DNA of 64,000 bases from a bacterium. GTDB lineage: Bacteria > Patescibacteriota > Patescibacteriia > JACPHY01. A model generated the notes under the pieces. The model was not told the origin of the DNA. It saw nothing but the letters and a program-made list of their open reading frames with translations, and ran no database searches. Below are positions 5,158 through 24,961 of the stretch, piece after piece (within the stretch, counting starts at the first letter, position 1; the number at the start of each line of letters is the position of its first letter). Both the position numbers and the translations under genes were made by a program. The stretch is taken from positions 285 to 64,284 of the forward strand of contig JAUSKM010000015.1 in assembly GCA_030646955.1 (NCBI GenBank), given 5' to 3'.

Positions 5158-5200
5158 ATATCGGGATGGTAGCAGCAACAATAGGAACCCGAAAATGGGA

Positions 5201-6802
5201 TCACCCTCGCGCCTCGTCTGCGCCACCAAAGGCACGGGGGACGGCGCGGAGGGCGTGACGACGGAGCGCGAGCGCAAGCGCGGTAATTTCATCGGATTTG
5301 AGGAGGATACCAACGGCAAGGTACGCCCCGAAGCCCAGGCCCCCTGCCAGGAAACCCTGCAACGCGATGCCGATGAATGTCTGTGTCCCCACAAGCGCGG
5401 CGATGCTGGGCTTCACCACCTGGATGACCACGCCCATGACGAGTGCAGCGATGAGGAATTTCCCGATGGCGATACCCGTACGCCGTCCATCCAGCCCGCC
5501 GGCGCGGCGACGCAATGCGACGAGGAGCGCGAGCGCCTGGACGATACCCGCGAGCGCCAACGCCAACGCGAGGCCCTGCGGACCAAATGTGCGACCCAGG
5601 AACCACGCAGCCGCGATGCCGAGCACATCCGCCGCCACGCTGATGACGAACGGCGTGCGCGTGTCCTCGAAGGCGTAAAACGCACGCGTCAAAAGCGGGA
5701 TGAGCATCGCAAAAAAGAGTCCAACGCCAAACGCCTCCACCGTTTCCAATGTTCGAACCGTATCCTCCCATCCAAACGCGCCAGCACCCAGGAGCACGCG
5801 GACGATCTGCGCTTTGAGTGCCAAGAGCATCACGACAGCAGGCAGCGCGAGGAGCGCGATCTGTCGAAACGTCGCAGAGAAATACTGCCGGAACTGTTCG
5901 ATGTCACCAGCAGCAACTGCGCTCGACAAGCGCGGGAATGCGGCGATGGCGAACGCGATGCCAATGAGCGCGATCGGCACATGTTGGATGTTCGCCGCAA
6001 ACGTAAACACCGCGAGCGATCCCGCGGCGAGCGTGGACGCAATGCCGGCGACGATGAGCAGCTGCACCTGCTGCGCGCCAAGCGATGCGACACGCGGGAG
6101 AAGGTTCACAAACAACAATCGCACCTCGCGATCGCGCCACGTTGGCGCCCACTGTACCCGCAGCCCCGTACGCGCCGCAGCCACCCATTGCATCGCAAGG
6201 TGCGCGGCAGCACCCAGCACCACGCCCCACGCGATTCCTACCGGGCCGAGCATCGGCGCCAGCGCGAGGACGCCGCCGATGATGCCAAGATTGTAGAGGA
6301 GCGGTGCCGCCGCAAACGCGAAGAAGCGCTCCTCTGCCTGCAATACGCTACCAATGACAGATGAGAGGCCTAGGAGTGCCGTCGCGATGAACAGGATGCG
6401 GCCAACCTGCACGGTGAGCGCAAGCTGCTCCGACGAAAACCCAGGCGCAATAGCCGCAAAGAGCGGCGTCGCCGCAAGTGCGCCAATGCTCCCACACAGC
6501 AGGAGGAGAAACGCGGCATTGGTGAACACCTGCGAGGCGAAACGATGTGCGCGGTCACGCCCACCCGCGCGCAGCCGAATAAAAATCGGCACGAACGCCG
6601 CGGAGAGCGCGGCGAGGCCAAGGAGGTTGAAGGCAAAATCCGGGATGCGGAATGCCGCGTAGTACGCGTCGAGTACCGACCCCGCACCAAACGTGGTGGC
6701 GAGGATGCGATCGCGCACGAGTCCCAGGATGCGGCTCGCAAGCGAGAGCGCTGCAATGAGCAGCGCGGAAGCGACGGTGGTTTGTCCCAAGCGCATAGGC
6801 AA
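5201..6802 (-). CDS. murJ: Lipid II flippase MurJ (MviN family)
   Basis: 533 aa polytopic membrane protein. The N-terminus SRILGLVRDRILATTFGAGSVLDAYYAAFRIPDF is typical of MurJ/MviN. Confidence 0.9.
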   Translation of the reverse strand: MPMRLGQTTVASALLIAALSLASRILGLVRDRILATTFGAGSVLDAYYAAFRIPDFAFNLLGLAALSAAFVPIFIRLRAGGRDRAHRFASQVFTNAAFLLLLCGSIGALAATPLFAAIAPGFSSEQLALTVQVGRILFIATALLGLSSVIGSVLQAEERFFAFAAAPLLYNLGIIGGVLALAPMLGPVGIAWGVVLGAAAHLAMQWVAAARTGLRVQWAPTWRDREVRLLFVNLLPRVASLGAQQVQLLIVAGIASTLAAGSLAVFTFAANIQHVPIALIGIAFAIAAFPRLSSAVAAGDIEQFRQYFSATFRQIALLALPAVVMLLALKAQIVRVLLGAGAFGWEDTVRTLETVEAFGVGLFFAMLIPLLTRAFYAFEDTRTPFVISVAADVLGIAAAWFLGRTFGPQGLALALALAGIVQALALLVALRRRAGGLDGRRTGIAIGKFLIAALVMGVVIQVVKPSIAALVGTQTFIGIALQGFLAGGLGFGAYLAVGILLKSDEITALALALRRHALRAVPRAFGGADEARG

Positions 6803-6820
6803 CTCCCATTGTACCGCACA

Positions 6821-6850
6821 ACACGCATCCGGCCGAAGCCGGATGCGTGT
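6821..6850. terminator. Intergenic 13-bp GC-rich hairpin between hpf and murJ
   Basis: acacgcatccggc cgaa gccggatgcgtgt, a perfect stem. The T-run is weak, so this is either a terminator or an attenuator. Confidence 0.5.
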
Positions 6851-6885
6851 TTGATGTATTGAGCCAGAAGCTAGCAGCTCGCAGC

Positions 6886-7260
6886 TTATGACGCTACTGC
6901 TTCCTCCGAAACACGCCGCGCGCTTGCTCCCGCGTGCATCCCCTGCATCGTACCGGCCACTCGGTGACGCTTGCGCATCTGAAGCACCAGTTTGTCCTTC
7001 GCGAGGTCAATCGCTTCGCGGAGCGTATGATCGTCCTCCTCCGCAAGCCACTTGTATGTATCAACCGTCAGCGTCAGGGATACCTTAAACGCCTTCTTCT
7101 TGGCAAAGCGCTCCGCCCGGAACGTCAGCAACGGCTCTTCTGTTCCTGCAGGGAGACGCAGCAACGCCCGCTCAATCGTCTTTGCCTTCACGACGAAATA
7201 CTGCCGGCAGAAATGCTGGTCAAACTCACCCACCTTCTTGTAGCTGTAGGAAACCTTCAT
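6886..7260 (-). CDS. hpf: Ribosome hibernation factor (HPF/RaiA family)
   Basis: MKVSYSYKK...FKVSLTLTVDTYKWLAEEDDHTLREAIDLAKDKLVLQMRKRH matches the HPF pattern (beta-alpha-beta core, then AIDxxxDKLxxQxxK). An alternative upstream ATG lies at 7275. Confidence 0.7.
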   Translation of the reverse strand: MKVSYSYKKVGEFDQHFCRQYFVVKAKTIERALLRLPAGTEEPLLTFRAERFAKKKAFKVSLTLTVDTYKWLAEEDDHTLREAIDLAKDKLVLQMRKRHRVAGTMQGMHAGASARRVSEEAVAS

Positions 7261-7422
7261 AGGATAGGCACTCATTACTACAGCGCGGGCCAGCCGTTTC
7301 TTTCATTTCCGCCGCCCGCGTCGCATGGACAACATACCCCGCCTGTGGAAAAACTGCAAGGAGGCCCCAAGATGCCAAAAATGGGGCGGTTCTGCGATGC
7401 CGATGATGCGGGAGGTACTTGC

Positions 7423-7815
7423 TCAATCATCAACGCGCGTATTGTTTCGTGTATCGCCGAGTACTCCGAGCGCCGCTGCTGCCATGAACAAACCAAAATC
7501 GCGCACGGCGAGATCCCCGCGTGCCACGGCAGCGAGAATGGTCAAAAGGTGAAGCGCGACAACCGCGGCAACGATACGCACTCGCCACCCCACCACCAGC
7601 AACACGCCGAGGAGCACCTCCGCCACACCCACCACGCGCAGGAACTGCACGGGATCCATCGGCAACAATCCGATCATCCACGGCGGAACAAATCCCAGCC
7701 ACGACACGGTATCTGCAATCTTGCCATATCCAAAGATGAGCAGCACTGCACCCAACCCCAAACGCAACAGCAATGCCGCAGCGCTGGGGCCCGTAAAACG
7801 AGAAAGCATCCTCAT
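7423..7815 (-). CDS. DoxX-family membrane protein
   Basis: MRMLSRFTGPSAAALLLRLGLGAVLLIFGYGKI...VAEVLLGVLLVVGWRVR: about 4 TM segments with DoxX-like composition. The track start at 7980 runs through a repeat unit, so the start was trimmed to the ATG at 7815. Confidence 0.7.
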   Translation of the reverse strand: MRMLSRFTGPSAAALLLRLGLGAVLLIFGYGKIADTVSWLGFVPPWMIGLLPMDPVQFLRVVGVAEVLLGVLLVVGWRVRIVAAVVALHLLTILAAVARGDLAVRDFGLFMAAAALGVLGDTRNNTRVDD

Positions 7816-7837
7816 ACTTTGACAATAAAATTGGTGC

Positions 7838-7868
7838 GTGTGAGATTGCTTCGCATGCTCGCAATGAC
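7838..7868. repeat. Single family-T repeat unit (TTGC/GCAA type)
   Basis: gtgtgagattgcttcgcatgctcgcaatgac. Its reverse complement is gtcattgcgagcatgcgaagcaatctcacac. Confidence 0.8.
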
Positions 7869-7924
7869 AATACTTAGGAATAAGTGGACTTAACATTTTC
7901 GACACCGTTTTCAAACACGGTCTC

Positions 7925-9187
7925 CTACGGCTTGTATAATTCATCGATGGCCGGCTCCCACACCGTGCAATGACTTGCACCGCCTATCGCGAACAGTTTT
8001 TTGTCGGGGTAGCGCTTTTTCAGCTCGCGAAACACATCGATTGCATGTTCGTCGCGAACAATATTCATGTCCCGCAAGACATCGCTGGTGACCCTTCGTT
8101 CACCGACCAACTGCGGCTCGGTCATTTCGATAATCCTGGCCCTATCTTCTTTCCTTAACTCCGGATCATCGAACCGTTTCACAAGCTCCGCCAAGGAGAA
8201 GCCCATATGCCTCTGCAGCGAGGCATCGATATTTTCATTCGTGAGTTCGATGCCTAAAGAAACTGCCTCTTCAACGCCGCCCCCCGACAAAGCAACACCA
8301 CTACGTCTGCGTATCTCGTCGGCGGAGGGCCTCACATTGGATTCATGGGGTTTATTTTCGTCATAGGATGCATGGGCCCTGCGTGCGGCATAGGTGACCA
8401 TCCAGTCGGTCACATCTTGTGGTCCGTATTTGTGCTCACCGGTGGTTTCATCTTTCAACTTAAGGACCTCGCGAATCTGCTCGATTGTACGCGTATCCCA
8501 AGTCCGGACCTCTTTCCCTTCCCGCATCGCCAATAAAGCAATGTACGGCTCCTCCCCTTTTTCCGCGATAACCCGCGCGGGATCTTTTTTCAGGATTTCG
8601 CTCAACGACTCCCCCGGGTAGAAGTCCTCAAGCGAAAGTCCGCCTTCGATCAGCACGATGTCCGGATCTTCTTGCATCAACGCATCGACCGTGGGTTGCA
8701 TCGGCTCAACTGTATTTGCGTGCGCAAAACCACGTCCAATGAACTCCGCACCGTTTTCGGAACGTTTCTTGATCTCGTTGATTTCCTTACCGCTTTCGCG
8801 GGCCGCCTTCTCTTCCTCCGGCGTCAAAAGAAGGAGATGCAATTTCTCGATCTCAAGTGCATCCAAGCGCGCGCCACGATTACGCTCCACACGCACTTGA
8901 TCGTCGACCATATGCCCGTGTATTGCCTGCTTGGATTCTTTACTAATAATTCCTAGTGCCGCCTCCAATCCATCCACTTCTCCCTGATAATCCTCTTCTA
9001 GTGTTGCGCGCATTTCAGATTCGTCTTTCGAGGAATCCGCAGCATGAGACAGAAGACGAATATCTTGATCGATTTTCGTGATCCGCTCCTTGCGCACCTG
9101 GGCAATGGTCTCCGGGGTTTTCGCTGCAACTTTTTCCGGAACAGCCCCCATCGAATCCATTTTCGGCAGTTCTTTTCCCGAGGACAT
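7925..9187 (-). CDS. Hypothetical protein, possible TraB/Tiki/ChaN-superfamily domain with an N-terminal coiled-coil extension
   Basis: 420-aa ORF in a visibly lower-GC stretch. Candidate superfamily motifs occur in order: RGFAH (GxxH), IVLIEGG (E), NIVRDEHAI (RD), FAIGGASH (GxxH). Motif-level inference only. Confidence 0.6.
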   Translation of the reverse strand: MSSGKELPKMDSMGAVPEKVAAKTPETIAQVRKERITKIDQDIRLLSHAADSSKDESEMRATLEEDYQGEVDGLEAALGIISKESKQAIHGHMVDDQVRVERNRGARLDALEIEKLHLLLLTPEEEKAARESGKEINEIKKRSENGAEFIGRGFAHANTVEPMQPTVDALMQEDPDIVLIEGGLSLEDFYPGESLSEILKKDPARVIAEKGEEPYIALLAMREGKEVRTWDTRTIEQIREVLKLKDETTGEHKYGPQDVTDWMVTYAARRAHASYDENKPHESNVRPSADEIRRRSGVALSGGGVEEAVSLGIELTNENIDASLQRHMGFSLAELVKRFDDPELRKEDRARIIEMTEPQLVGERRVTSDVLRDMNIVRDEHAIDVFRELKKRYPDKKLFAIGGASHCTVWEPAIDELYKP

Positions 9188-9205
9188 AAAAATACAACAA
9201 CCGCA

Positions 9206-9286
9206 TCAAGTCCGTTTTTCTCTCGTGCACAAACGCAACAGAAACGCCGCGATCTCGGAGCCCGTAAAGCGAAAAAACATCCTCAT
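9206..9286 (-). pseudogene. Duplicated, truncated doxX 5' end
   Basis: ATG at 9286 reads MRMFFRFTGSEIAAFLLRLCTREKRT*, compared with the doxX N-terminus MRMLSRFTGPSAAALLLRLG. Roughly 70 nt (9230-9300) matches 7761-7830 at an estimated 80 percent by eye, including the upstream leader. Confidence 0.55.
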
Positions 9287-9414
9287 ACTCTGACAATCAT
9301 CTTCGTCACCGCGTCCTGAAATACGCGAAACGCCTTCCGCCACTCTTTCTTGTGCGTGTATTGATCGTCATTGCTGACACGTACGCAGTACTGACACCCA
9401 CACCAATGATACCA

Positions 9415-9852
9415 TCAGTGTGCCTTCGGGTACGCGCAGTTTACCATCCACTGCACCCCGAACCGATCCCGAACACTCCCGTAGTAGTCACCCCATGGCT
9501 GGTCTGCAATATCCATCTCCACCGTGCCGCCGTCTGCAAGCGCATGGAAGATGCGATCCGCCTCCTCCTTGCTGTCGGGATGAATGGAAATGTACGCGTT
9601 ATTTCCCTGCACCAACTTCTGCCCAAGCGACGGCAGCGTGTCCGAAGCCATGAGCTTATCGTCGCCAACTGGAAGGCAAATGTGCATCATCCCGTTCTCC
9701 TCCTCTTTGGGAATGTGTACGCCTTCCATCGGCATGTCCTTGAACCGCACCCTGGAGCTGAACTCCCCGCCAAAGATGGAACGGTAAAACGTGAACGCCT
9801 CCTCTGCATTCCCGGCAAAGTTGAGATACGTGTTGAGTTTTATATTCTCCAT
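9415..9852 (-). CDS. VOC/glyoxalase-fold protein (PhnB-like)
   Basis: MENIKLNTYLNFAGNAEEAFTFYRSIFGG...MHICLPVGDDKLMASD...IADQPWGDYYGSVRDRFGVQWMV is the typical PhnB/VOC pattern. Start trimmed from 9981 (which runs through repeats) to the ATG at 9852. Confidence 0.8.
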   Translation of the reverse strand: MENIKLNTYLNFAGNAEEAFTFYRSIFGGEFSSRVRFKDMPMEGVHIPKEEENGMMHICLPVGDDKLMASDTLPSLGQKLVQGNNAYISIHPDSKEEADRIFHALADGGTVEMDIADQPWGDYYGSVRDRFGVQWMVNCAYPKAH

Positions 9853-9862
9853 TTTTCCATCT

Positions 9863-9942
9863 GTCATTTCGAACGCAGCGAGAAATCTCACACGATCCAA
9901 TAACTGCCGACACGCGAGATTGCTTCGCGGACTCGCAATGAC
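9863..9942. repeat. Inverted pair of family-T units (TTTC type + TTGC type)
   Basis: gtcatttcgaacgcagcgagaaatctcacacg (9863-9894) and cacgcgagattgcttcgcggactcgcaatgac (9911-9942). Confidence 0.8.
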
Positions 9943-9977
9943 AGTACGTATGTGATGCCGTGAAATTGCAATCGTTA

Positions 9978-11294
9978 TCATCCTTCGTACGCCCGCTGCA
10001 GCTGCTCCACATCAAACTTCTTCATCGCGAGAAATGCCTTCGTCACACGCGCACGACGTTCTGGATCCTCATCGCGCATCATCGCGTCCATTGCCGTGGG
10101 CACGATCTGCCAGGAAACGCCGTACGTGTCCTTGAGCCATCCGCATTGCTCTGCTTCCGGCACGGCAGAGAGCCGCTCCCAAAAATAATCGATCTCCGCC
10201 TGCGTATCGCACCGTATCAGGAACGAGAATGCCTCATTGAACGTAAACGCATGCTTATGCGCGCTGTCCATCGCTATAAACTGCTGCCCTACCAACGCAA
10301 ACTCTCCGTACATCACCGTCCCCTCCTTATCCGGCGCAGCATTCGCACCGTACCTACTCATATCGCCCACCTTCGCATCGCGAAATACTGACGCATAGAA
10401 CCGCATCGCTTCCTCTGCTTTCCCGCACCGCTCTCCAACGAACAGAAGCGATGGGGTGATGCGCTGGATACTCTTGCGACCGTCCATGCATATGAGCTGC
10501 CACGAGAGGCCATACCGGTCTTGCACCCATCCGTACCGCGTACTGAACGGATATGCACCAAGCTCCATCAGTACTTTCCCGCCATCCGCAAGCTGCTCCC
10601 AGAGCGCGTCCACCTCCGCAGGCGTTGCGCACGCGACCATGAATGAGATTGCCGGAGTAAATTGGAAGTACGGCCCTGCGCTGATGCACATGAACTCCTG
10701 CCCCGAGAGCACAAAGGACACAACATCTACCGCGCCAGAAGGCGTCCCCTGCAACGTAGTTACATACTCCACGCGCGAATCCGGAAAAAGCGACGTGTAA
10801 AATTCCGCCGCCTCTCGCGCCTCCTTGTCGTACCAAAGGTGAGGCACAATTTTTTGCATAGTGGCAACCTCCACCGTGCCGCGCTCGACGTACCGCTTGA
10901 AATTGGTGAGGATCGCCTGCCAACCATCCCGCTGCATCTGCTCCGGATTCAGCGACTCCGGATCAAACGTCTCGGTCACGTATACGTGCTCCAGCATCTG
11001 CGTGAACGTCACGCGCACATGCCGACCGTCATCCATGTCGTACTCGATCAATGCATACTTGCGAACGGCAGCATGCGTTCCCGAAAAATCAAACCTTGCG
11101 CTGCCATCCTTTGCAGCCATCACCGTCGTAAATCGTCCACCCACACGTACATCATTCTCCGCCGACGGCGCCTCCTACTCATCCGACGCAAACGCCCAGC
11201 CGACAATGTGCTCCGACTGCGTAAAACACTCCCACACCCTCGCCATGGGAGCGCGCACATCCACGTCCACTGTGATTGGCTGTTGTTTGTTCAT
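9978..11294 (-). pseudogene. SRPBCC(AHSA1-like) + 2x VOC (PF06983-like) fusion gene interrupted by an in-frame TAG
   Basis: From the ATG at 11294: MNKQQPITVDVDVRAPMARVWECFTQSEHIVGWAFASDE-TAG(11177-11175)[25 protein letters not shown]. The frame then continues through two VOC repeats ([17 protein letters not shown]...; [22 protein letters not shown]...). The same frame is used on both sides of the stop. Confidence 0.7.
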
Positions 11295-11479
11295 GTGATT
11301 CTTCACTGTAGCAGCGCCATGATGACCTTTTCGTGAATTGAATTCATCCGACCATGTCAGCGTACCACAACGCAAAACGCCCCTGCTTTCGCTCATAATA
11401 CTCTTCCCTCGCAGAGCAACGAAAAACCTACCGCCATCAATGCATACGCAGGAACACCACGTGCACTGTACTGCATGTA

Positions 11480-11517
11480 TACAAGGAAAGACCGCCCCAC
11501 GAAGGGCGGCCTTGTAC
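11480..11517 (-). terminator. Rho-independent terminator after the Asp/Cys-rich lipoprotein gene
   Basis: The minus strand reads ggtacaaggccgcccttcgtggggcggtctttccttgta: a GC stem followed by a T-rich tail. Confidence 0.55.
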
Positions 11518-11541
11518 CAACAACGGAGCACCGTACGTCGC

Positions 11542-12378
11542 TCAATCACCTGAGAGAAACTCGGCCCATGCCGCACACTCCTCGAGGTCGTCGGTATCGA
11601 TGAGGCGGTCGCAATCGTTGTCGACGTGATCATTGCACACCTCTTCATTGCACGCGGGATCGCAGGTGAGCAACGCTACAGGAGCATCACACTCCCAAAA
11701 CCCCTCCTGCAACAATCCGTCGTTCTCCCATATGCAGATCACGCCGATCCAATCACCGTCGTCCGTCACCCCGTCGCAGTCGTTGTCGACGCCATCGCAG
11801 ATTTCCATGGGACATGCTGCGGTCGAATCGAACACACAATCGCCATCATCCCAATCCACCATGCCATCGCAGTCGTTGTCGGCACGATCATGACACAACT
11901 CGACATTCTCCTCACAGGACGGACCTCCAGCGATAGGGAGCCCGCATGAGAGCGTTGTGTGTGGCACGCCCTCTGTACCGGGAGCCCCGCACGTACGCAG
12001 GCCTGCATTCACTGCATCCCAGTACTCCATGTAACACGCCTGCTCTTCCCAAGGACCATTGTCCGTGATACCGTCGCAGTCGTTATCGATACTATCGCAG
12101 CGCTCCTCAGAGCACTCGGTCGCGTCATCGCCGGAATCATCATCCGCGCTGACGGCATCATCGTCGGATGTGTCGCCGTCGTCGTTTGCGGTTGCTTGGG
12201 AGTCATCGTCGGTGATGACTCCATCGTCGTCCGCTGCCATCGTATCGTCATCGACGGAAGTTGCGACGCTATCATCGTCTCCAACCGGAAAACTTCCTTC
12301 CGGCATATCGCTCCCGCACGCCTGCACTGCCGTTATGAGCGCCGTGATCATGGAAAGAACCAACCATACGGTACGCAT
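11542..12378 (-). CDS. Asp/Cys-rich lipoprotein with four DNDCDG-type putative metal-binding repeats
   Basis: MRTVWLVLSMITALITAVQACG has a signal peptide plus lipobox. An acidic low-complexity region follows, then CDSIDNDCDGITD, CHDRADNDCDGMVD, CDGVDNDCDGVTD and CNDHVDNDCDRLID. There is a strong SD (aaggaggtgcgg) upstream of the ATG at 12378. Confidence 0.75.
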   Translation of the reverse strand: MRTVWLVLSMITALITAVQACGSDMPEGSFPVGDDDSVATSVDDDTMAADDDGVITDDDSQATANDDGDTSDDDAVSADDDSGDDATECSEERCDSIDNDCDGITDNGPWEEQACYMEYWDAVNAGLRTCGAPGTEGVPHTTLSCGLPIAGGPSCEENVELCHDRADNDCDGMVDWDDGDCVFDSTAACPMEICDGVDNDCDGVTDDGDWIGVICIWENDGLLQEGFWECDAPVALLTCDPACNEEVCNDHVDNDCDRLIDTDDLEECAAWAEFLSGD

Positions 12379-12404
12379 CCGCACCTCCTTCTTTGTTCCC
12401 CGCA

Positions 12405-12433
12405 AATATACATCCAAGCAGCCTCTCCGTCAA
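12405..12433 (-). promoter_or_regulatory. Sigma-70-like promoter for the lipoprotein gene
   Basis: Minus strand: TTGACG (12433-12428), a 17-nt spacer, then TATATT (12410-12405). This is about 27 nt upstream of the start codon. Confidence 0.5.
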
Positions 12434-12591
12434 GTTCCCCAAAATATATTCACCAAAAAGCTAATCGTTCGACGTGTTTCCACGGATGTCAAAAACCCCA
12501 CCGAAGCAGCGAGGCCATTGACATCTCCGCATCGTGAACAATGCTAGAGCCGCGGTACAGGAACATCGATAATACATCCGACTCCCCACAA

Positions 12592-13260
12592 CTAAAACTT
12601 CCTGACCTTCATGATGCAAGCATCGTCCACGCCTCCCTTTGCGCTCGCATACATCGCGTAGAGAAAGGCATCTCGGTCGATTGCATGTTGGCCGCCGAAT
12701 TCCTCACCCCAATCGGGGTCGTTGACGTAGACATTCTCTTGATCGATGCCGGTCACGACATTGAAATGAATGCTGAATCTTGGCGGGAGGTCAGTATTGT
12801 GAAGAAACCAATGTGTGAGAGGAATAAATACGGGCCGCTCTTCGTTTACTTCCACTTCGATATCACTCATGAGCGGAACCCGCGGCGTGATAGTGCCGCC
12901 TGCATCCACAAATTGAAGAAAGTGATCGAGAGCGATCGGATCACATTCTCCTTTCATGAGCGGTTTGAGCGACCAGAGATACCTCTTGAGCTCATCCGTA
13001 TTCTTGAACGATGAAAAGAGCGAAAAAAGGGATGGGTGCATCGTAATAATCTCGACCGAAAAACCTCGCTTAAGCAAGTACGTTCCGACTTGCGGGGTAA
13101 CTGTCCCCCACGAGTACGTTCCGAGTTCCTTTTTCATCTCATCAAAGGAAAACGACACCTTGTAGTACGCAAGCAACATCGCAAGACATGCGGGACCACA
13201 ATCGCTGGATCCTTCAGCTTGTCGAACAAGAGGAACAGATAGTTTCGTCATACTACCCAC
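12592..13260 (-). CDS. Stand-alone C39-like (papain-fold) cysteine peptidase
   Basis: VPLVRQAEGSSDCGPACLAMLLAYY gives the Q...C nucleophile motif, with HFNVVTGID...VYVNDP providing downstream His/Asp. The stretch is lower in GC. The track start is GTG at 13260; the first ATG is at 13251. Confidence 0.75.
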   Translation of the reverse strand: MGSMTKLSVPLVRQAEGSSDCGPACLAMLLAYYKVSFSFDEMKKELGTYSWGTVTPQVGTYLLKRGFSVEIITMHPSLFSLFSSFKNTDELKRYLWSLKPLMKGECDPIALDHFLQFVDAGGTITPRVPLMSDIEVEVNEERPVFIPLTHWFLHNTDLPPRFSIHFNVVTGIDQENVYVNDPDWGEEFGGQHAIDRDAFLYAMYASAKGGVDDACIMKVRKF

Positions 13261-13291
13261 AGTCTACCAGTTCGAATCCCATCACGGGAGC

Positions 13292-13319
13292 AAACAAAAC
13301 CCCAGCATTGCTGCTGAGG
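13292..13319 (-). terminator. Rho-independent terminator after the 225-aa membrane protein gene
   Basis: Minus strand: cctcagca gcaa tgctgggg followed by ttttgttt. Confidence 0.6.
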
Positions 13320-13417
13320 ATTTGTTGGCTCGGGCTCGTGGACCTTGATCGTCTTAACGGGTCAATTGCTCATTGGATTTCGAGAGGGCACGACTGACCA
13401 GAAATAATTAGGAAATC

Positions 13418-14095
13418 TCAAGGCAGATTGGACTCCCCCACTGCGACCAGCTTTCCATCCCGAAGATACACATGCAATGTCCAGTCTCGATGATCTTCCC
13501 AGGGGGCATAGGTTAGCACGGTGTAGCCATCGGACGCACTCGTTTTCACTGGTTCACCAAACGCTCGAAAAACAGTCACCGTATCGATTCCGACAACCTC
13601 CCCATGCGAACGCGGATCGGTAAACTTAATGAGTCGGGCACTCTTTTCATGCTGATTAGCCCGCTCTCGAAGATACTCCTTGGCATGGGAGCCACTCATC
13701 CAATACGCACGCTCCCAAAATGGAACCTGAATATGCTTTGTGACCTGTTCCCCACCTCGTCGAAGCGGATTGTCATCAATCTGTAAACGAAACTCTCGCA
13801 ACCATGGCGTCCAAACGACCATCCAAATAGTGAGCACGAACACAACGAATGCGGACGGGAGATACACAATCGCGACCGTTTTCGGCACCCGCTTCTTCAC
13901 CGTGAAAACCATGACCATGGTGAAGATGGCAACCGCGAGAATAACAGACAGCACAAGCATACCAACCTCAAACCCCACACCTCGACCCTCGAGTGCAGAA
14001 CTCCACCCCGCAAGAAAAGCACACGCGACCATGAAACCCGAGAATGCCGCCAGGAAAACCATGCAAACGCTCAACAAGTTTGGTTTTTTCATCAT
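13418..14095 (-). CDS. Hypothetical membrane protein (3 TM + soluble C-terminal domain)
   Basis: MMKKPNLLSVCMVFLAAFSGFMVACAFLAG..., followed by two more hydrophobic helices and then a domain of about 110 aa. Lower GC. No recognisable motif. Confidence 0.6.
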   Translation of the reverse strand: MMKKPNLLSVCMVFLAAFSGFMVACAFLAGWSSALEGRGVGFEVGMLVLSVILAVAIFTMVMVFTVKKRVPKTVAIVYLPSAFVVFVLTIWMVVWTPWLREFRLQIDDNPLRRGGEQVTKHIQVPFWERAYWMSGSHAKEYLRERANQHEKSARLIKFTDPRSHGEVVGIDTVTVFRAFGEPVKTSASDGYTVLTYAPWEDHRDWTLHVYLRDGKLVAVGESNLP

Positions 14096-14180
14096 AGCTT
14101 CGTGATACCTACCAAGAGGACGAAATGCTCAAGAATCGCAACGCTTCATCTTGACCGTTGTGCTCCCAAGTGTACCAAAA

Positions 14181-14212
14181 GTAATCGGACCACCCAAGGG
14201 TGATCCGATTAC
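14181..14212 (-). terminator. Terminator hairpin immediately 3' of tRNA-Gln
   Basis: gtaatcgga c caccc aa gggtg a tccgattac, followed on the minus strand by TTTTGG. Confidence 0.7.
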
Positions 14213-14214
14213 TT

Positions 14215-14285
14215 CTCGGGGACCTGGATTCGAACCAAGATAAACGGATTCAGAGTCCGTTGTCCTACCATTAGACGATCCCCGA
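14215..14285 (-). tRNA. tRNA-Gln (anticodon CUG)
   Basis: Minus strand: TCGGGGA TC GTCT AATGGTA GGAC A ACGGA CTCTGAA TCCGT TTAT CTTGG TTCGAAT CCAGG TCCCCGA G. The cloverleaf was folded by hand. The acceptor pairs 7/7. Confidence 0.9.
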
Positions 14286-14368
14286 CTACGCAGCAGCATA
14301 CACCACATCTTCAAGCAAAACCGTACCACGACCAGTTTCTTCTGACAAGCAACCCCATCAGACGCGCA

Positions 14369-16171
14369 CTACTCCATAATGGGCGCGGCTGCGGTGCCTC
14401 GTGCCGGTTCGCTCGCTGCGATGACGCGGGAAGAAGCGAACACCTCCAGGGCGGCGTCAACGGTGGTGTCGCCGGTGGCGGGGCGGCAGGCGCGGTCGAG
14501 CTCTTCAAAGTGCTCCACCGCAATCGCGACGGGATCCAGGTGGAGGGGCGTGCCGACGATGCGTGCGATGGCGCTGGTGAGCGGCTCTATGATGCCGGGC
14601 TGCCGCACTTTCTCCGCGTGGAGCTTGTAGCGGAAGCCGATGGTGAGCGTCCCGTCTGCAATGCGTTGCGGGCGACCGCCTTCCAGGAGGTACGGGATGG
14701 AGCGGTTGACGTCCGCGAGATCGCGGATGATGTGGTGCCATTGTTGCTGGACTTTCGAGAGCGCCTCGGTGGCGCTCTGGATGACGGTGGATGTTGGAAG
14801 TTGCTCCCTCCTCCCGGCGGAAGGGGGAGGAATAAAACGCACCCCCTCTGACTCCCCCTCTTGAAGAGGGGGAGGAACCGGATCGGATGTATCTGTTACC
14901 GTCGTTGGGAGTTTGATGCTTGCAGGGGTACGAGCGCGCGAGGCGTGTTGGGGGGTACGGGCTGCACCGCCGGTGGTGGCGGGTGGAGCATCGTCGTCAT
15001 TGCTCCGCGATGCGTCTCGCTGAGACGAGGCGAGCTGCGCGGGATTCATTTTGCCTGGTGATGCGCTCGCTGCGGGCGCTGCGGGAACGAATGGGGAGCG
15101 CGCGAGGAGCGTAAGGACGGCAACCTCGAGGAGGAAGAACGGACGGTCTGCACGACCGATGCGATCCAGGAGTTCCGTGAACATGCGAAGCGCGAACACC
15201 TGTGCCGTCGCAACGGCACCTTGCTGGGCGGCAGCGCGTGCGGCGCTGCGCAGCTCGTTGATGATGTCGCGACAAAACGCATCCGCATCGCATCCCTCGG
15301 CTGATGCAGCATCGAGCGTGGCCAGGGCCAATGCGGTGTCGCCGGCACCAACCGCGCGAAGCAGCGTCTGGACATGCACCATGTTTGATTGCGGGAGCAC
15401 GAGCGCGGCAACATCGGCCGTCACTCGCTTCCCGCCCACCGCCATGAGCTGCCCCAACAGGGATTCTGCGTCACGCACGGAGCCGTCTGCCGCGCGGACT
15501 ACCTGCGCGAGCACCTCGTCATCCACGGCAACATCCTCTACCCCTGCAAGCATCCGGAGCCGCTCCGTGAGCGTCCCATCCCCCACGCGCCGGAACGTAA
15601 AATGCTGGCACCGTGACGTGATCGTCTCCGGCACCTTCTGCATTTCCGTTGTCGCAAGGATGAAGTGGACGTGCTCTGGCGGCTCCTCCAGCGTCTTGAG
15701 GAGCGCATTAAAGGACGCCGTCGAGAGCATGTGCACCTCGTCAATGATGTACACCTTCTTTGCTGCAACTGCGGGGGCGATACGCACCGCCTCGATGATG
15801 TACTCACGCACCTTCTCCACCTGCGTGTTGGATGCCGCATCAATCTCCACGACATCCATGCAACGTCCTGCGGTAATTTCCTCGCACCGGATGCAGGCGT
15901 TACAAGGCACGGGAAGTGTTTGCTTCGACCGGTGCTTCGCGCGAGTTTCTTCGTCGCTCCGCTCCTCGGAATGACGAGGAGCGAGGCAATTCACCGCCTT
16001 CGCCAGGAGCCGCGCGGTGGTGGTCTTTCCAACGCCGCGCGGACCGGAGAAAAGGTACGCATGCGCAACACGACCCGCCGCGATAGCCGCGACGAGCGTG
16101 CGCGTGACATGCTCCTGCCCCACGACGTCCTCAAACGTCTGCGGGCGATGCTTACGATACAGTACGGGCAT
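14369..16171 (-). CDS. dnaX: DNA polymerase III subunit gamma/tau
   Basis: MPVLYRKHRPQTFEDVVGQEHV, Walker A GPRGVGKTT, DEVHML, TSRCQ. Start trimmed to the ATG at 16171. It carries two repeat-derived segments (features at 14805 and 15941). Confidence 0.9.
   Translation of the reverse strand: MPVLYRKHRPQTFEDVVGQEHVTRTLVAAIAAGRVAHAYLFSGPRGVGKTTTARLLAKAVNCLAPRHSEERSDEETRAKHRSKQTLPVPCNACIRCEEITAGRCMDVVEIDAASNTQVEKVREYIIEAVRIAPAVAAKKVYIIDEVHMLSTASFNALLKTLEEPPEHVHFILATTEMQKVPETITSRCQHFTFRRVGDGTLTERLRMLAGVEDVAVDDEVLAQVVRAADGSVRDAESLLGQLMAVGGKRVTADVAALVLPQSNMVHVQTLLRAVGAGDTALALATLDAASAEGCDADAFCRDIINELRSAARAAAQQGAVATAQVFALRMFTELLDRIGRADRPFFLLEVAVLTLLARSPFVPAAPAASASPGKMNPAQLASSQRDASRSNDDDAPPATTGGAARTPQHASRARTPASIKLPTTVTDTSDPVPPPLQEGESEGVRFIPPPSAGRREQLPTSTVIQSATEALSKVQQQWHHIIRDLADVNRSIPYLLEGGRPQRIADGTLTIGFRYKLHAEKVRQPGIIEPLTSAIARIVGTPLHLDPVAIAVEHFEELDRACRPATGDTTVDAALEVFASSRVIAASEPARGTAAAPIME
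14805..14874. repeat. Two adjacent G/C-tract hairpins inside the dnaX 3' half
   Basis: ctccctcctcccggcggaagggggagga and ctccccctcttgaagagggggag. Translated as PPLQEGESEGVRFIPPPSAGRRE. Confidence 0.65.
15941..15975. repeat. Family-T repeat unit inside the dnaX zinc-module region
   Basis: The reverse complement gtcattccgaggagcggagcgacgaagaaactcgcg is near-identical to the intergenic unit gtcattgcgaggagcgaagcgacgaagcaatcccgg at 24924-24961. Translated as RHSEERSDEETRA. Confidence 0.75.
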
Positions 16172-24803: not shown

Positions 24804-24961
24804 GCCGGAATTGCCACGTCGAGGACTCCTCGCAATGACAATACCGGTGTCATTGCGAGTCCGCGAAGCAATCCCGGCCATGTGCAGCACTGTGCTGCGT
24901 CGCCATCGCAAGAGTCCTGCTATGGCCGGGATTGCTTCGTCGCTTCGCTCCTCGCAATGAC
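24804..24961. repeat. Three family-T units, two of which form a long hairpin
   Basis: gccggaattgccacgtcgaggactcctcgcaatgac (24804-24839) faces gtcattgcgagtccgcgaagcaatcccggcc (24849-24879). A third, inverted unit ggccgggattgcttcgtcgcttcgctcctcgcaatgac lies at 24924-24961. Confidence 0.85.

Follow-up and report, generated by a model that had tools for sequence, protein, structure and literature searches.

The described systems closest to the locus treated here are tRNA-associated genomic islands, the C39 peptidase domains of peptidase-containing ABC transporters, and the MopE-related proteins of PF11617. The C39 clan also has stand-alone families, namely the PF13529 proteins (B. anthracis 3erv, YvpB-like proteins, and the catalytic domains of endolysins), DUF3335 (PF11814), Guanylate_cyc_2 (PF09778), and AvrRpt2 (C70). 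How, then, does a tRNA-Gln gene with three low-GC genes on its 3′ side, in a genome that is probably patescibacterial, compare with them? The original prediction took these genes for a horizontally acquired surface or secretion cassette, whose integrase has been lost and whose products act together. In our reading, which we consider probable although far from certain, the region from 11.3 to 14.2 kb of the window (the whole stretch of 64,000 nucleotides that was analyzed) is not a three-gene cassette. It would rather be where a mosaic accessory segment some 7 kb long meets the tRNA gene, a segment made of independently transcribed genes with different histories.

Composition and Gene Content of the Segment

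The tRNA-Gln gene (anticodon CTG) is located at 14215-14285 on the minus strand, as had been proposed, and is recognized by both ARAGORN and Rfam (RF00005, 63.3 bits); CCA is not encoded, and the Rfam scan gave nothing beyond three tRNAs. Its sequence is 86% identical to that of the tRNA-Gln(CTG) gene upstream of a homologue of the C39-like gene in another genome (locus L043). The three predicted genes on its 3′ side are confirmed as minus-strand ORFs encoding a membrane protein (13418-14095), a C39-like peptidase (12592-13251), and a lipoprotein (11542-12378). They had been described as a lower-GC islet of three genes, and the low GC itself is real: 500-nt bins from 12501 to 14000 have a GC content of 0.49-0.52 against 0.613 for the whole window, the lowest-GC bins of the window fall within these genes, and the GC z-scores against the 34 other genes are -5.2 for the peptidase, -4.2 for the membrane protein, and -2.0 for the lipoprotein. 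The limits of the islet did not hold, since the low-GC stretch extends from about 6.9 to about 14.3 kb and contains seven ORFs, reaching about 4.5 kb past the three tRNA-proximal genes. All seven ORFs have a lower GC content than each of the 34 other genes of the window (Mann-Whitney U = 0, P = 4e-8), and their GC3 is lower as well (Mann-Whitney, P = 2e-4). The block is continuous between the tRNA gene at one border and the core genes for HPF and MurJ at the other. Its GC drop is gradual across 7.0-8.0 kb, and GC3 differs gene by gene from 0.55 to 0.68; this spread suggests several sources or ages.

The further genes of the segment are also on the minus strand. One frame at 9978-11294 encodes an AHSA1/SRPBCC domain and two PhnB-like (3-dmu-9_3-mt) domains and is interrupted by an in-frame TAG at 11175-11177, a break that is also present in the Logan contig L001. 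Then follow a PhnB/glyoxalase-like protein (9415-9981, GC 0.532), a protein of 420 aa that matches no family in our scans (7925-9187, GC 0.524, GC3 0.576), and, near the left edge of the segment, a DoxX-family membrane protein (7423-7812; PF07681, 1.6e-8) whose probable start, MRMLSRF, lies at about 7812. The Logan contig, the only independent one found, is 100% identical, covers 9914-14248, and ends inside tRNA-Gln and at a palindromic repeat (9916-9950).

Are the three tRNA-proximal genes transcribed together? Two rho-independent terminators had been predicted, and stable hairpins do exist on the minus strand, but their number is four, one after the tRNA and one after each gene. Directly after the tRNA, a 16-bp hairpin is followed by UUUUGG (14179-14214, -24.5 kcal/mol, z -5.16). 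Terminator-like hairpins followed by UUUUGUUUG and by UUUUUGAC come after the membrane protein gene (13290-13329, -20.8 kcal/mol, z -4.86) and the peptidase gene (12482-12530, -27.0 kcal/mol, z -4.95), respectively, while the lipoprotein gene is followed by a GC-rich hairpin with a weak U-tract (11488-11513, -24.3 kcal/mol, z -3.5). The promoter-like TTGACG-N17-TATATT ahead of the lipoprotein gene (12405-12433, minus strand) is present as predicted and matches at 10 of 12 positions, though such sites are not in excess over chance (4 found between 7 and 15 kb, 5.3 expected). The strong AGGAGG ribosome-binding site can likewise be read from the sequence, at 12384-12389 on the minus strand, 5 nt before the ATG at 12378. 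Co-transcription of the three genes is thus contradicted by predicted signals, that is, by a hairpin after each gene and by a promoter-like site and a ribosome-binding site before the third.

The Two Envelope Proteins

The membrane protein (225 aa) has three N-terminal transmembrane helices followed by a β-hairpin, a long helix, and a C-terminal α/β domain, which is predicted to face outward and is possibly BamE/OsmE-like (SmpA_OmlA), although the protein gives no Pfam match. It comes from a small family unlinked to the C39-like peptidase; its closest homologue (44% identity, locus L044) adjoins a PAS histidine kinase gene, with no C39 gene there.

The lipoprotein has 278 aa when translated from ATG (291 aa from TTG) and matches PF11617 with 45.2 bits (1e-11; cut-off 27). 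Its signal sequence ends in ITAVQA before the Cys, and a putative lipobox can be read as MRTVWLVLSMITALITAVQA followed by this Cys, with an unusual Gln at -2. The predicted Asp-rich tract is a linker of about 70 residues after the lipobox, 34% of which are Asp. Of the four DNDCDG repeats originally described, four DNDCD motifs are indeed found, at residues 98, 167, 198, and 253, but the fourth reads DNDCDR. The protein contains 21 Cys, 20 of them after the lipobox Cys, and its best foreign match shows 31% identity (E 6e-15; range 31-40%). It is a lineage-specific, Cys-rich lipoprotein that probably binds Ca2+. The lipobox, apparently an ordinary one, points to the Lgt/LspA route, and a Gly-Gly leader is lacking.

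The C39-Like Peptidase and Its Family

The gene next to the lipoprotein gene encodes a stand-alone cysteine peptidase of 219 aa from ATG (222 aa from the listed GTG at 13260). It matches PF13529 with 50.9 bits (3e-13) and PF03412 with 45.1 bits (1e-11), well above the curated cut-offs of 24 and 22 bits, and both profiles are matched by all 25 aligned relatives; by sequence, it is a member of the peptidase C39 clan, as predicted. The spacing of the nucleophile motif differs from the QxxxxxC that had been read: in RQAEGSSDCG it is Q-x6-C, not Q-x5-C. Gln11, Cys18, His162, and Asp178 are invariant across the family, so that the catalytic Cys and His, the Asp/Asn, and the upstream Gln of the papain-like fold are all present. 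An extra α/β subdomain of about 65-85 residues (residues ~78-160) lies between the Cys and the His parts. Neither a signal peptide nor a transmembrane segment is found in the protein, and neither a wall-binding domain nor a phage homologue in the family. All 35 homologues are of 250 aa or less, the family size being about 220 aa and every member stand-alone. To judge from genome titles, the family is distributed over Uhr-, Abawaca-, Sacchari-, Peri-, Woyke-, and Roizmanbacteria as well as Woese-, Nano-, and Micrarchaeota. CPR and DPANN are two radiations of ultra-small episymbionts, and a literature search gave nothing specific to this family in either. It is an uncharacterized, highly conserved family common to both, and its gene is the sole notable one of the three.

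What would such a peptidase do? The original statement, namely that no ABC transporter is fused to it and no double-glycine leader gene is visible, was borne out by ORF and leader scans: no leader ORF is found among the intergenic small ORFs, and the leader-pattern scan of the whole window returned only two antisense artefacts. Its core is closest to those of double-glycine leader peptidases, and therefore we propose that it may act as a cytoplasmic papain-fold endopeptidase, with Cys18, His162, and Asp178 as catalytic residues and Gln11 as the putative oxyanion residue, which would remove the N-terminal leader from, or otherwise clip, substrates encoded elsewhere in the genome and not its two neighbors. 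The inserted subdomain and the longer Gln-Cys spacing count against this role, and the subdomain could alter specificity entirely.

The neighborhood of the gene in relatives is variable. No recurrent partner emerged from BLAST clustering of about 650 neighbor ORFs, every Pfam family is limited to at most 2 of the 130 neighbors scanned (ABC_tran is not recurrent), and the share of neighbors with transmembrane segments equals background; a conserved operon partner was rejected on these results. The only recurrent contexts are small: a place beside suf genes (in locus L005 the gene lies between two genes for SUFBD-domain proteins, and L014 and L019 have upstream genes of ABC-ATPase type in common with it), and one block common to three Woesearchaeota-type loci. 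What is conserved is a position. The order tRNA-Gln, non-homologous membrane protein gene, C39-like gene recurs in two other lineages (L003/L007 and L043) with different genes on both sides, so the C39-like gene looks like an old resident. Orthologues of the neighboring membrane protein and lipoprotein genes are missing from this position in the relatives. More generally, the gene lies just downstream of a same-strand tRNA gene in 7 of 40 loci (0.7 expected), with five different tRNA types and, in two loci, a gap of just 44-54 bp.

GC3 of the C39-like gene follows that of the host over the range 0.15-0.71, which speaks for long residence. Its GC lies under that of the surroundings in 27 of 32 loci, with a mean difference of -3.3 points, and its GC3 is slightly reduced in 22 of 30 (P = 0.008); a part of the deficit is therefore a family trait. 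The window copy, however, has one of the largest deficits of the family, its GC3 being 0.16 under the core mean and about 0.11 under its neighbors. This fits poorly with an old resident passed on vertically; either the allele would have to have been replaced by one from a lower-GC relative, or GC would have to have risen in this lineage while sparing the segment. Between L002 and L042, the C39-like protein and ComM are both 70% identical, which again speaks for long residence. The C39-like protein shares 67-70% identity with relatives in which MurJ and DnaX reach only 39% and 31%. Such high identity is explained by strong constraint, but also by transfer.

Possible Origins of the Segment

We favor the mosaic reading, in which the C39-like gene would be an old resident of the segment. 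The slot between it and tRNA-Gln would be occupied by a three-helix envelope protein, its outward domain maybe BamE/OsmE-like, and the slot after it by the lineage-specific MopE-repeat lipoprotein, anchored by the ordinary Lgt/LspA route; the rest would consist of the PhnB-like, SRPBCC, and DoxX genes and the gene for the 420-aa protein, one of them broken by a stop codon. The low GC would then come from DNA gained piece by piece or replaced by other alleles rather than from one integrase-mediated insertion. The claim of horizontal acquisition survives in part: genes of atypical composition at the 3′ side of a tRNA are what one may see with foreign DNA or with DNA exchanged recently, whereas recent cargo is a poor description of the C39-like gene, which belongs to a conserved family and follows tRNA-Gln in two other lineages.

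It is conceivable, though doubtful, that the explanation lies in the peptidase family itself. Since the gene follows tRNA genes unusually often, it might be a small mobile or co-expressed module associated with tRNA sites. The strongly constrained stand-alone family of about 220 aa would then have been exchanged between CPR and DPANN and serve a lifestyle-specific cytoplasmic proteolysis, and the low-GC copy of the window would be a recent allelic import.

Another reading, and an unlikely one, is a single larger island, acquired horizontally and about 7 kb in size (6.9-14.2 kb), which integrated at tRNA-Gln and whose integrase and att repeat have eroded. A continuous low-GC block on the 3′ side of the tRNA gene, with genes on the same strand, would fit; the PhnB and SRPBCC genes look accessory, the TAG marks a decaying gene, and the Logan contig stops within the tRNA and at the repeat at 9914, as expected for strain differences. 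Uneven GC and GC3 among the genes of the block argue against one insertion, however, and so does the link of the C39-like gene with tRNA-Gln in L003 and L043, by which that part would predate the genome unless three like insertions had occurred. A scan of nine ORFs in the interval 6.9-14.2 kb gave no integrase or recombinase domain. The 22-nt 3′ end of tRNA-Gln has no second copy in the window with up to 3 mismatches, and the repeat scan of 6500-14400 gave no direct-repeat pair of it; an att-like repeat was rejected on these grounds. Pfam, NCBIfam, PADLOC, and PHROGs gave no matches to phage, integrase, or defence content, and tblastn against 50,697 phage records gave nothing. An IMG/VR search returned only distant partial relatives of the C39-like protein, and a DnaX scan of metagenome contigs only distant DnaX genes (best 48% over the ATPase domain), with no C39 gene and no close relative of this genome.

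Could all the genes be vertical, their low GC reflecting gene-specific constraints or weak expression? The frequent deficit of the C39-like gene and its conserved synteny with tRNA-Gln speak for this. It seems improbable nonetheless, for the deficit here amounts to -12 points in GC and about -0.16 in GC3 relative to core genes, three- to fourfold what the family shows on average, and is common to six unrelated neighboring ORFs, and the membrane protein and lipoprotein lack orthologues at this position.

The cassette originally proposed, in which the lipoprotein would be processed or anchored by the peptidase, aided by the membrane protein, we regard as very improbable. Its genes adjoin the 3′ side of the tRNA and hold the lowest-GC bins of the window, and two of its products belong to the envelope. 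Against it are the low GC running past them, the absence of integrase and att-like repeat noted above, and a hairpin for every gene. The three families never occur together in other genomes (the C39 loci, L044, and the MopE-like locus L127 of another CPR genome, which has no C39 gene nearby), distant relatives keep tRNA-Gln and the C39-like gene with other flanking genes, and the peptidase has no signal peptide, whereas the lipoprotein carries an ordinary lipobox and lacks a Gly-Gly site. An assembly chimera, with a segment of a co-occurring lower-GC relative joined at tRNA-Gln and at a repeat, is barely credible: the sole independent contig does end at these two places and GC3 of the C39-like gene (0.55) resembles that of relatives with genomes of 46-56% GC, but two joins would be needed, each restoring high-GC core, contigs commonly break at repeats without chimerism, and GC declines gradually at 7.0-8.0 kb.

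Significance

Little is added with regard to genomic islands or secretion cassettes, since the locus does not stand up as either. It does illustrate cleanly how a slot beside a tRNA can vary in a reduced CPR genome, and turnover of envelope or surface genes at such a slot bears on cell-surface diversification of CPR episymbionts. The modest significance rests mainly on the unstudied peptidase family of CPR and DPANN, highly conserved, apparently cytoplasmic, and with no transporter partner, whose substrate, if found, might bring to light a processing step that both radiations share.

Comparison with Known Systems

With tRNA-associated genomic islands the segment shares the 3′ side of a tRNA gene, atypical composition, and accessory-type genes, one of them decaying; it differs in having neither integrase nor repeat of the tRNA end, in its heterogeneous composition, and in a C39-like gene that is tRNA-proximal in other lineages too. 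Unlike the C39 domains of peptidase-containing ABC transporters (LahT150 6mpz, PCAT1, and ComA PEP), the window protein has no transporter, fused or adjacent, as in about 40 loci, and no nearby Gly-Gly leader substrate; it adds the α/β subdomain between its Cys and His parts, and between Gln and Cys it has one residue more than ComA. It scores under the curated cut-offs of DUF3335 and PF09778, and whereas YvpB-like proteins and endolysin domains work outside the cell or with holins, its family lacks signal peptide and wall-binding domain. The membrane protein differs from BamE/OsmE in being anchored by three transmembrane helices and not by lipid, and its host is presumably monoderm, without an outer-membrane BAM complex. 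The lipoprotein has the same C-x3-DNDCDG-x2-D-type repeats as Methylococcus MopE and myxobacterial lipoproteins; the PF11617-type repeat itself is not known to imply copper binding as in MopE. The repeats also resemble the DxDxDG calcium-binding repeats of thrombospondin type-3-like (TSP3) proteins. Its architecture resembles that of other repeat proteins of 250-330 aa, similar proteins occur in other Patescibacteria (P0086 and L127), and to the known PF11617 proteins it adds the long Asp-rich linker after the lipobox.

Gene layout and composition

Downstream of tRNA-Gln(CTG) (14215-14285, minus strand; found by both ARAGORN and Rfam) three ORFs follow on the same strand, which encode a membrane protein of 225 aa (13418-14095), the stand-alone C39-like cysteine peptidase (C39) of 219 aa counted from its ATG (12592-13251), and the MopE-repeat lipoprotein of 278 aa counted from an ATG preceded by AGGAGG at 12384-12389 (11542-12378). 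Since a stable hairpin is found 3′ of the tRNA and of each of the three genes (-24.5, -20.8, -27.0, and -24.3 kcal/mol; z of -3.5 to -5.2), these tRNA-proximal genes are predicted to form three monocistronic units and no operon. The top-scoring promoter-like site within 7-15 kb is TTGACG-N17-TATATT at 12433-12405, in a region where the frequency of such sites is not above that in shuffled sequence.

The mean GC of the window is 61.3%, and its lowest values, 49-52%, are those of the bins from 12501 to 14000. The depression extends from about 7.0 kb to the tRNA. Expressed as GC/GC3, C39 has 0.49/0.55, the membrane protein 0.52/0.56, the lipoprotein 0.57/0.64, a 420-aa ORF 0.52/0.58, and two PhnB-like genes 0.53-0.57/0.65-0.68, against a mean of 0.62/0.71 for 34 other genes. 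Because the GC of all seven ORFs of the segment is below that of each of these 34 genes (P = 4e-8), its composition is by no means unremarkable, and the lack of a compositional difference that would have refuted the original prediction is not observed. Thus, the low-GC islet claimed there is real as a compositional feature, while its extent is about 7 kb and not the 2.9 kb of three genes.

Probable traces of flux in the segment

With an interrupted frame, a duplicated gene end, and palindromic repeats, the segment looks like accessory DNA in flux. An SRPBCC-PhnB-PhnB frame on the minus strand (9978-11294) is split by an in-frame TAG (11175-11177) into an SRPBCC/AHSA1 N-terminal part (MNKQQPITVDVDVRAPMARVWECFTQSEHIVGWAFASDE) and a part containing the C-part of AHSA1 and two PhnB-like domains, and the same break is present in L001, an independent Logan contig that is 100% identical to the window. 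A Trp is presumably conserved at this position in the SRPBCC family (TGG to TAG). The TAG is likely to be a nonsense mutation and would leave a pseudogene or split gene. The 5′ end of DoxX is duplicated as a 77-nt direct repeat (7759-7835 and 9230-9306, 78% identity), which spans the DoxX start and its first ~19 codons (MRMLSRFTGPSAAALLLRL); the orphan copy (MRMFFRFTGSEIAAFLLRL) is located immediately upstream of the 420-aa ORF and looks like what a duplication or an insertion within the segment would leave behind. In addition, a short palindromic repeat (TTGCGAG...GAAGCAA) occurs in four copies in the window (7846-7864, 9920-9938, 24853-24871, and 24932-24957) against zero expected, and two of them are in the low-GC segment, upstream of DoxX and the PhnB-like genes. 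A near-identical core of this repeat (GAGGAGCGGAGCGACGA, 16/17) lies in frame within dnaX (15951-15975), where it codes for most of a 17-residue insertion (PRHSEERSDEETRAKHRSKQ) missing from the DnaX of L043, a contig with a C39 homologue.

Are these features remnants of a single eroded 7-kb island? The compositional shift that ends at the tRNA agrees with such a view; the differences in GC3 from gene to gene inside the segment rather suggest several sources or ages. No ORF in the 6.9-14.2 kb interval contains an integrase or recombinase domain, the terminal 22 nt of tRNA-Gln have no second copy in the window even with three mismatches allowed, the repeat scan gave no flanking direct repeat, and the phage and defence libraries gave no match to the segment. 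The integrase-type insertion at the 3′ end of tRNA-Gln in the original prediction therefore finds no backing here, and the single island is possible with a lower probability.

The tRNA-Gln and C39 pair

What is conserved beside this tRNA can be seen by comparison with other genomes. In L003/L007, contigs of Uhrbacteria whose C39 is 67% identical, a tRNA-Gln(TTG), a 197-aa single-TM protein, C39, and a 280-aa signal-anchored protein are arranged in this order, and in L043 (C39 70% identical) the order is tRNA-Gln(CTG), a 107-aa 3-TM protein, C39, and a PemK toxin. The tRNA-Gln(CTG) of the window and that of L043 share 86% identity, no similarity was found between the C39-flanking proteins of the window and those of the other two loci, and the genes upstream of tRNA-Gln are different in each of the three genomes. 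Thus, the conserved unit is the pair of tRNA-Gln and C39, and the slots before and after C39 are changeable. The link with tRNA-Gln is missing in L002, L042, and L008, which are members of the same C39 clade.

In a wider view, 7 of 40 loci have a tRNA on the strand of C39 that ends no more than 1.3 kb upstream of it, against about 0.7 predicted from the density of tRNAs in the outer flanks. The types are Gln at three loci (L003 7103-7176 and L043 6986-7059 among them), Ala (L008 6721-6796), Pro (L009, three genes at 6761-7332), Lys (L011 762-837), and Phe (L040 5035-5109), and for the last two the gap to the C39 start codon is 44 bp (gene at 881) and 54 bp (gene at 5163), respectively. This gives a binomial P of 8e-6, which becomes 6e-4 when the three Gln loci are treated as a single event; because the 1.3-kb threshold was picked after the data were seen, the association of the family with tRNA genes is suggestive only. 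Two side observations concern these tRNAs: the 3′ CCA is encoded (...GAACCA) in the tRNA-Gln genes of L003 and L043 and is not encoded in that of the window, which ends in ...CCCCGAG followed by AAGT, and a homologue of the membrane protein in L044 is likewise downstream of a tRNA (Asp).

As to other neighbours, BLAST clustering revealed no recurrent partner gene of C39, each Pfam family is present in at most two of 130 flanking proteins, which are mainly products of housekeeping genes, and membrane proteins are not enriched beside C39. The sole recurring functional context noticed is the suf cluster: in L005 (6570-9690) the C39-family gene is flanked by two SUFBD-domain genes, and genes upstream of C39 in L014 and L019 cluster with the ABC ATPase of L005, which suggests a similar context.

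Resident or import

Across host GC3 values of 0.15-0.71, the GC3 of C39 tracks that of the host with a mean deficit of -0.03 (P = 0.008), as expected if the gene has long resided in most of them. When L002 is compared with L042, C39 is 70% identical, as is ComM, against 60% for LysM-M23 and 46% for LspA; in this respect C39 resembles a vertically inherited gene under good constraint. The GC3 deficit of the window's C39 is among the largest in the family, and its identity with relatives is 67-70%, against 39% for MurJ and 31% for DnaX. Either strong constraint or allelic replacement by a lower-GC relative may have produced this pattern; a DnaX-based scan of metagenome contigs found no close relative of the window's genome. 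Vertical inheritance alone is possible for the segment as well, again with a lower probability. An assembly chimera is also possible at lower probability: L001 terminates inside the tRNA and at 9914, its end coinciding exactly with the 9916-9950 copy of the palindromic repeat. The gene calls for the three ORFs are identical in that contig.

Distribution of the C39 family

Thirty-five C39-family loci were found when one genome of each GTDB species was scanned; their record titles, the source of this taxon spread, name Uhr-, Abawaca-, Sacchari-, Peri-, Woyke-, and Roizmanbacteria, Paceibacterota, and many Woese-, Nano-, and Micrarchaeota, with other taxa in a dozen titles. L008, L012-L014, L019, L020, L023, L025, L038, and L039 are titled Gammaproteobacteria, Alphaproteobacteria, Methanosarcinales, or Planctomycetales. 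The C39 genes of these MAGs cluster with CPR and DPANN sequences, their loci are low in GC, and their genes are small; the labels may be wrong. In a crude NJ tree drawn without support values, the window's C39 and five relatives (66-78% identity) make up a star-like clade, beyond which archaeal and bacterial sequences interleave. Phage records and IMG/VR contain no member of the family, apart from distant C39 domains.

Concluding remarks

Taken together, the idea of a three-gene cassette whose products act together is unsupported, though the sequence observation behind it is real. The facts are explained most simply by a variable zone of atypical composition located 3′ of tRNA-Gln, in which a stand-alone peptidase gene of the C39 type, old and conserved, would be placed between replaceable envelope-protein genes, followed by accessory genes in differing states of decay. 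Judging from its conserved catalytic residues, the peptidase is proposed to be an active cytoplasmic cysteine endopeptidase, and from its closest structural relatives it might, tentatively, clip a leader or a linker in proteins whose genes lie elsewhere. As a whole the region is ordinary accessory DNA, and all three proteins are members of known superfamilies, two of them already labelled by NCBI as 'C39 family peptidase' and 'MopE-related protein'. A literature search found no paper describing this C39 family, and it is the one point worth following: an uncharacterised peptidase family with an inserted subdomain, invariably without a transporter, and common to CPR and DPANN.
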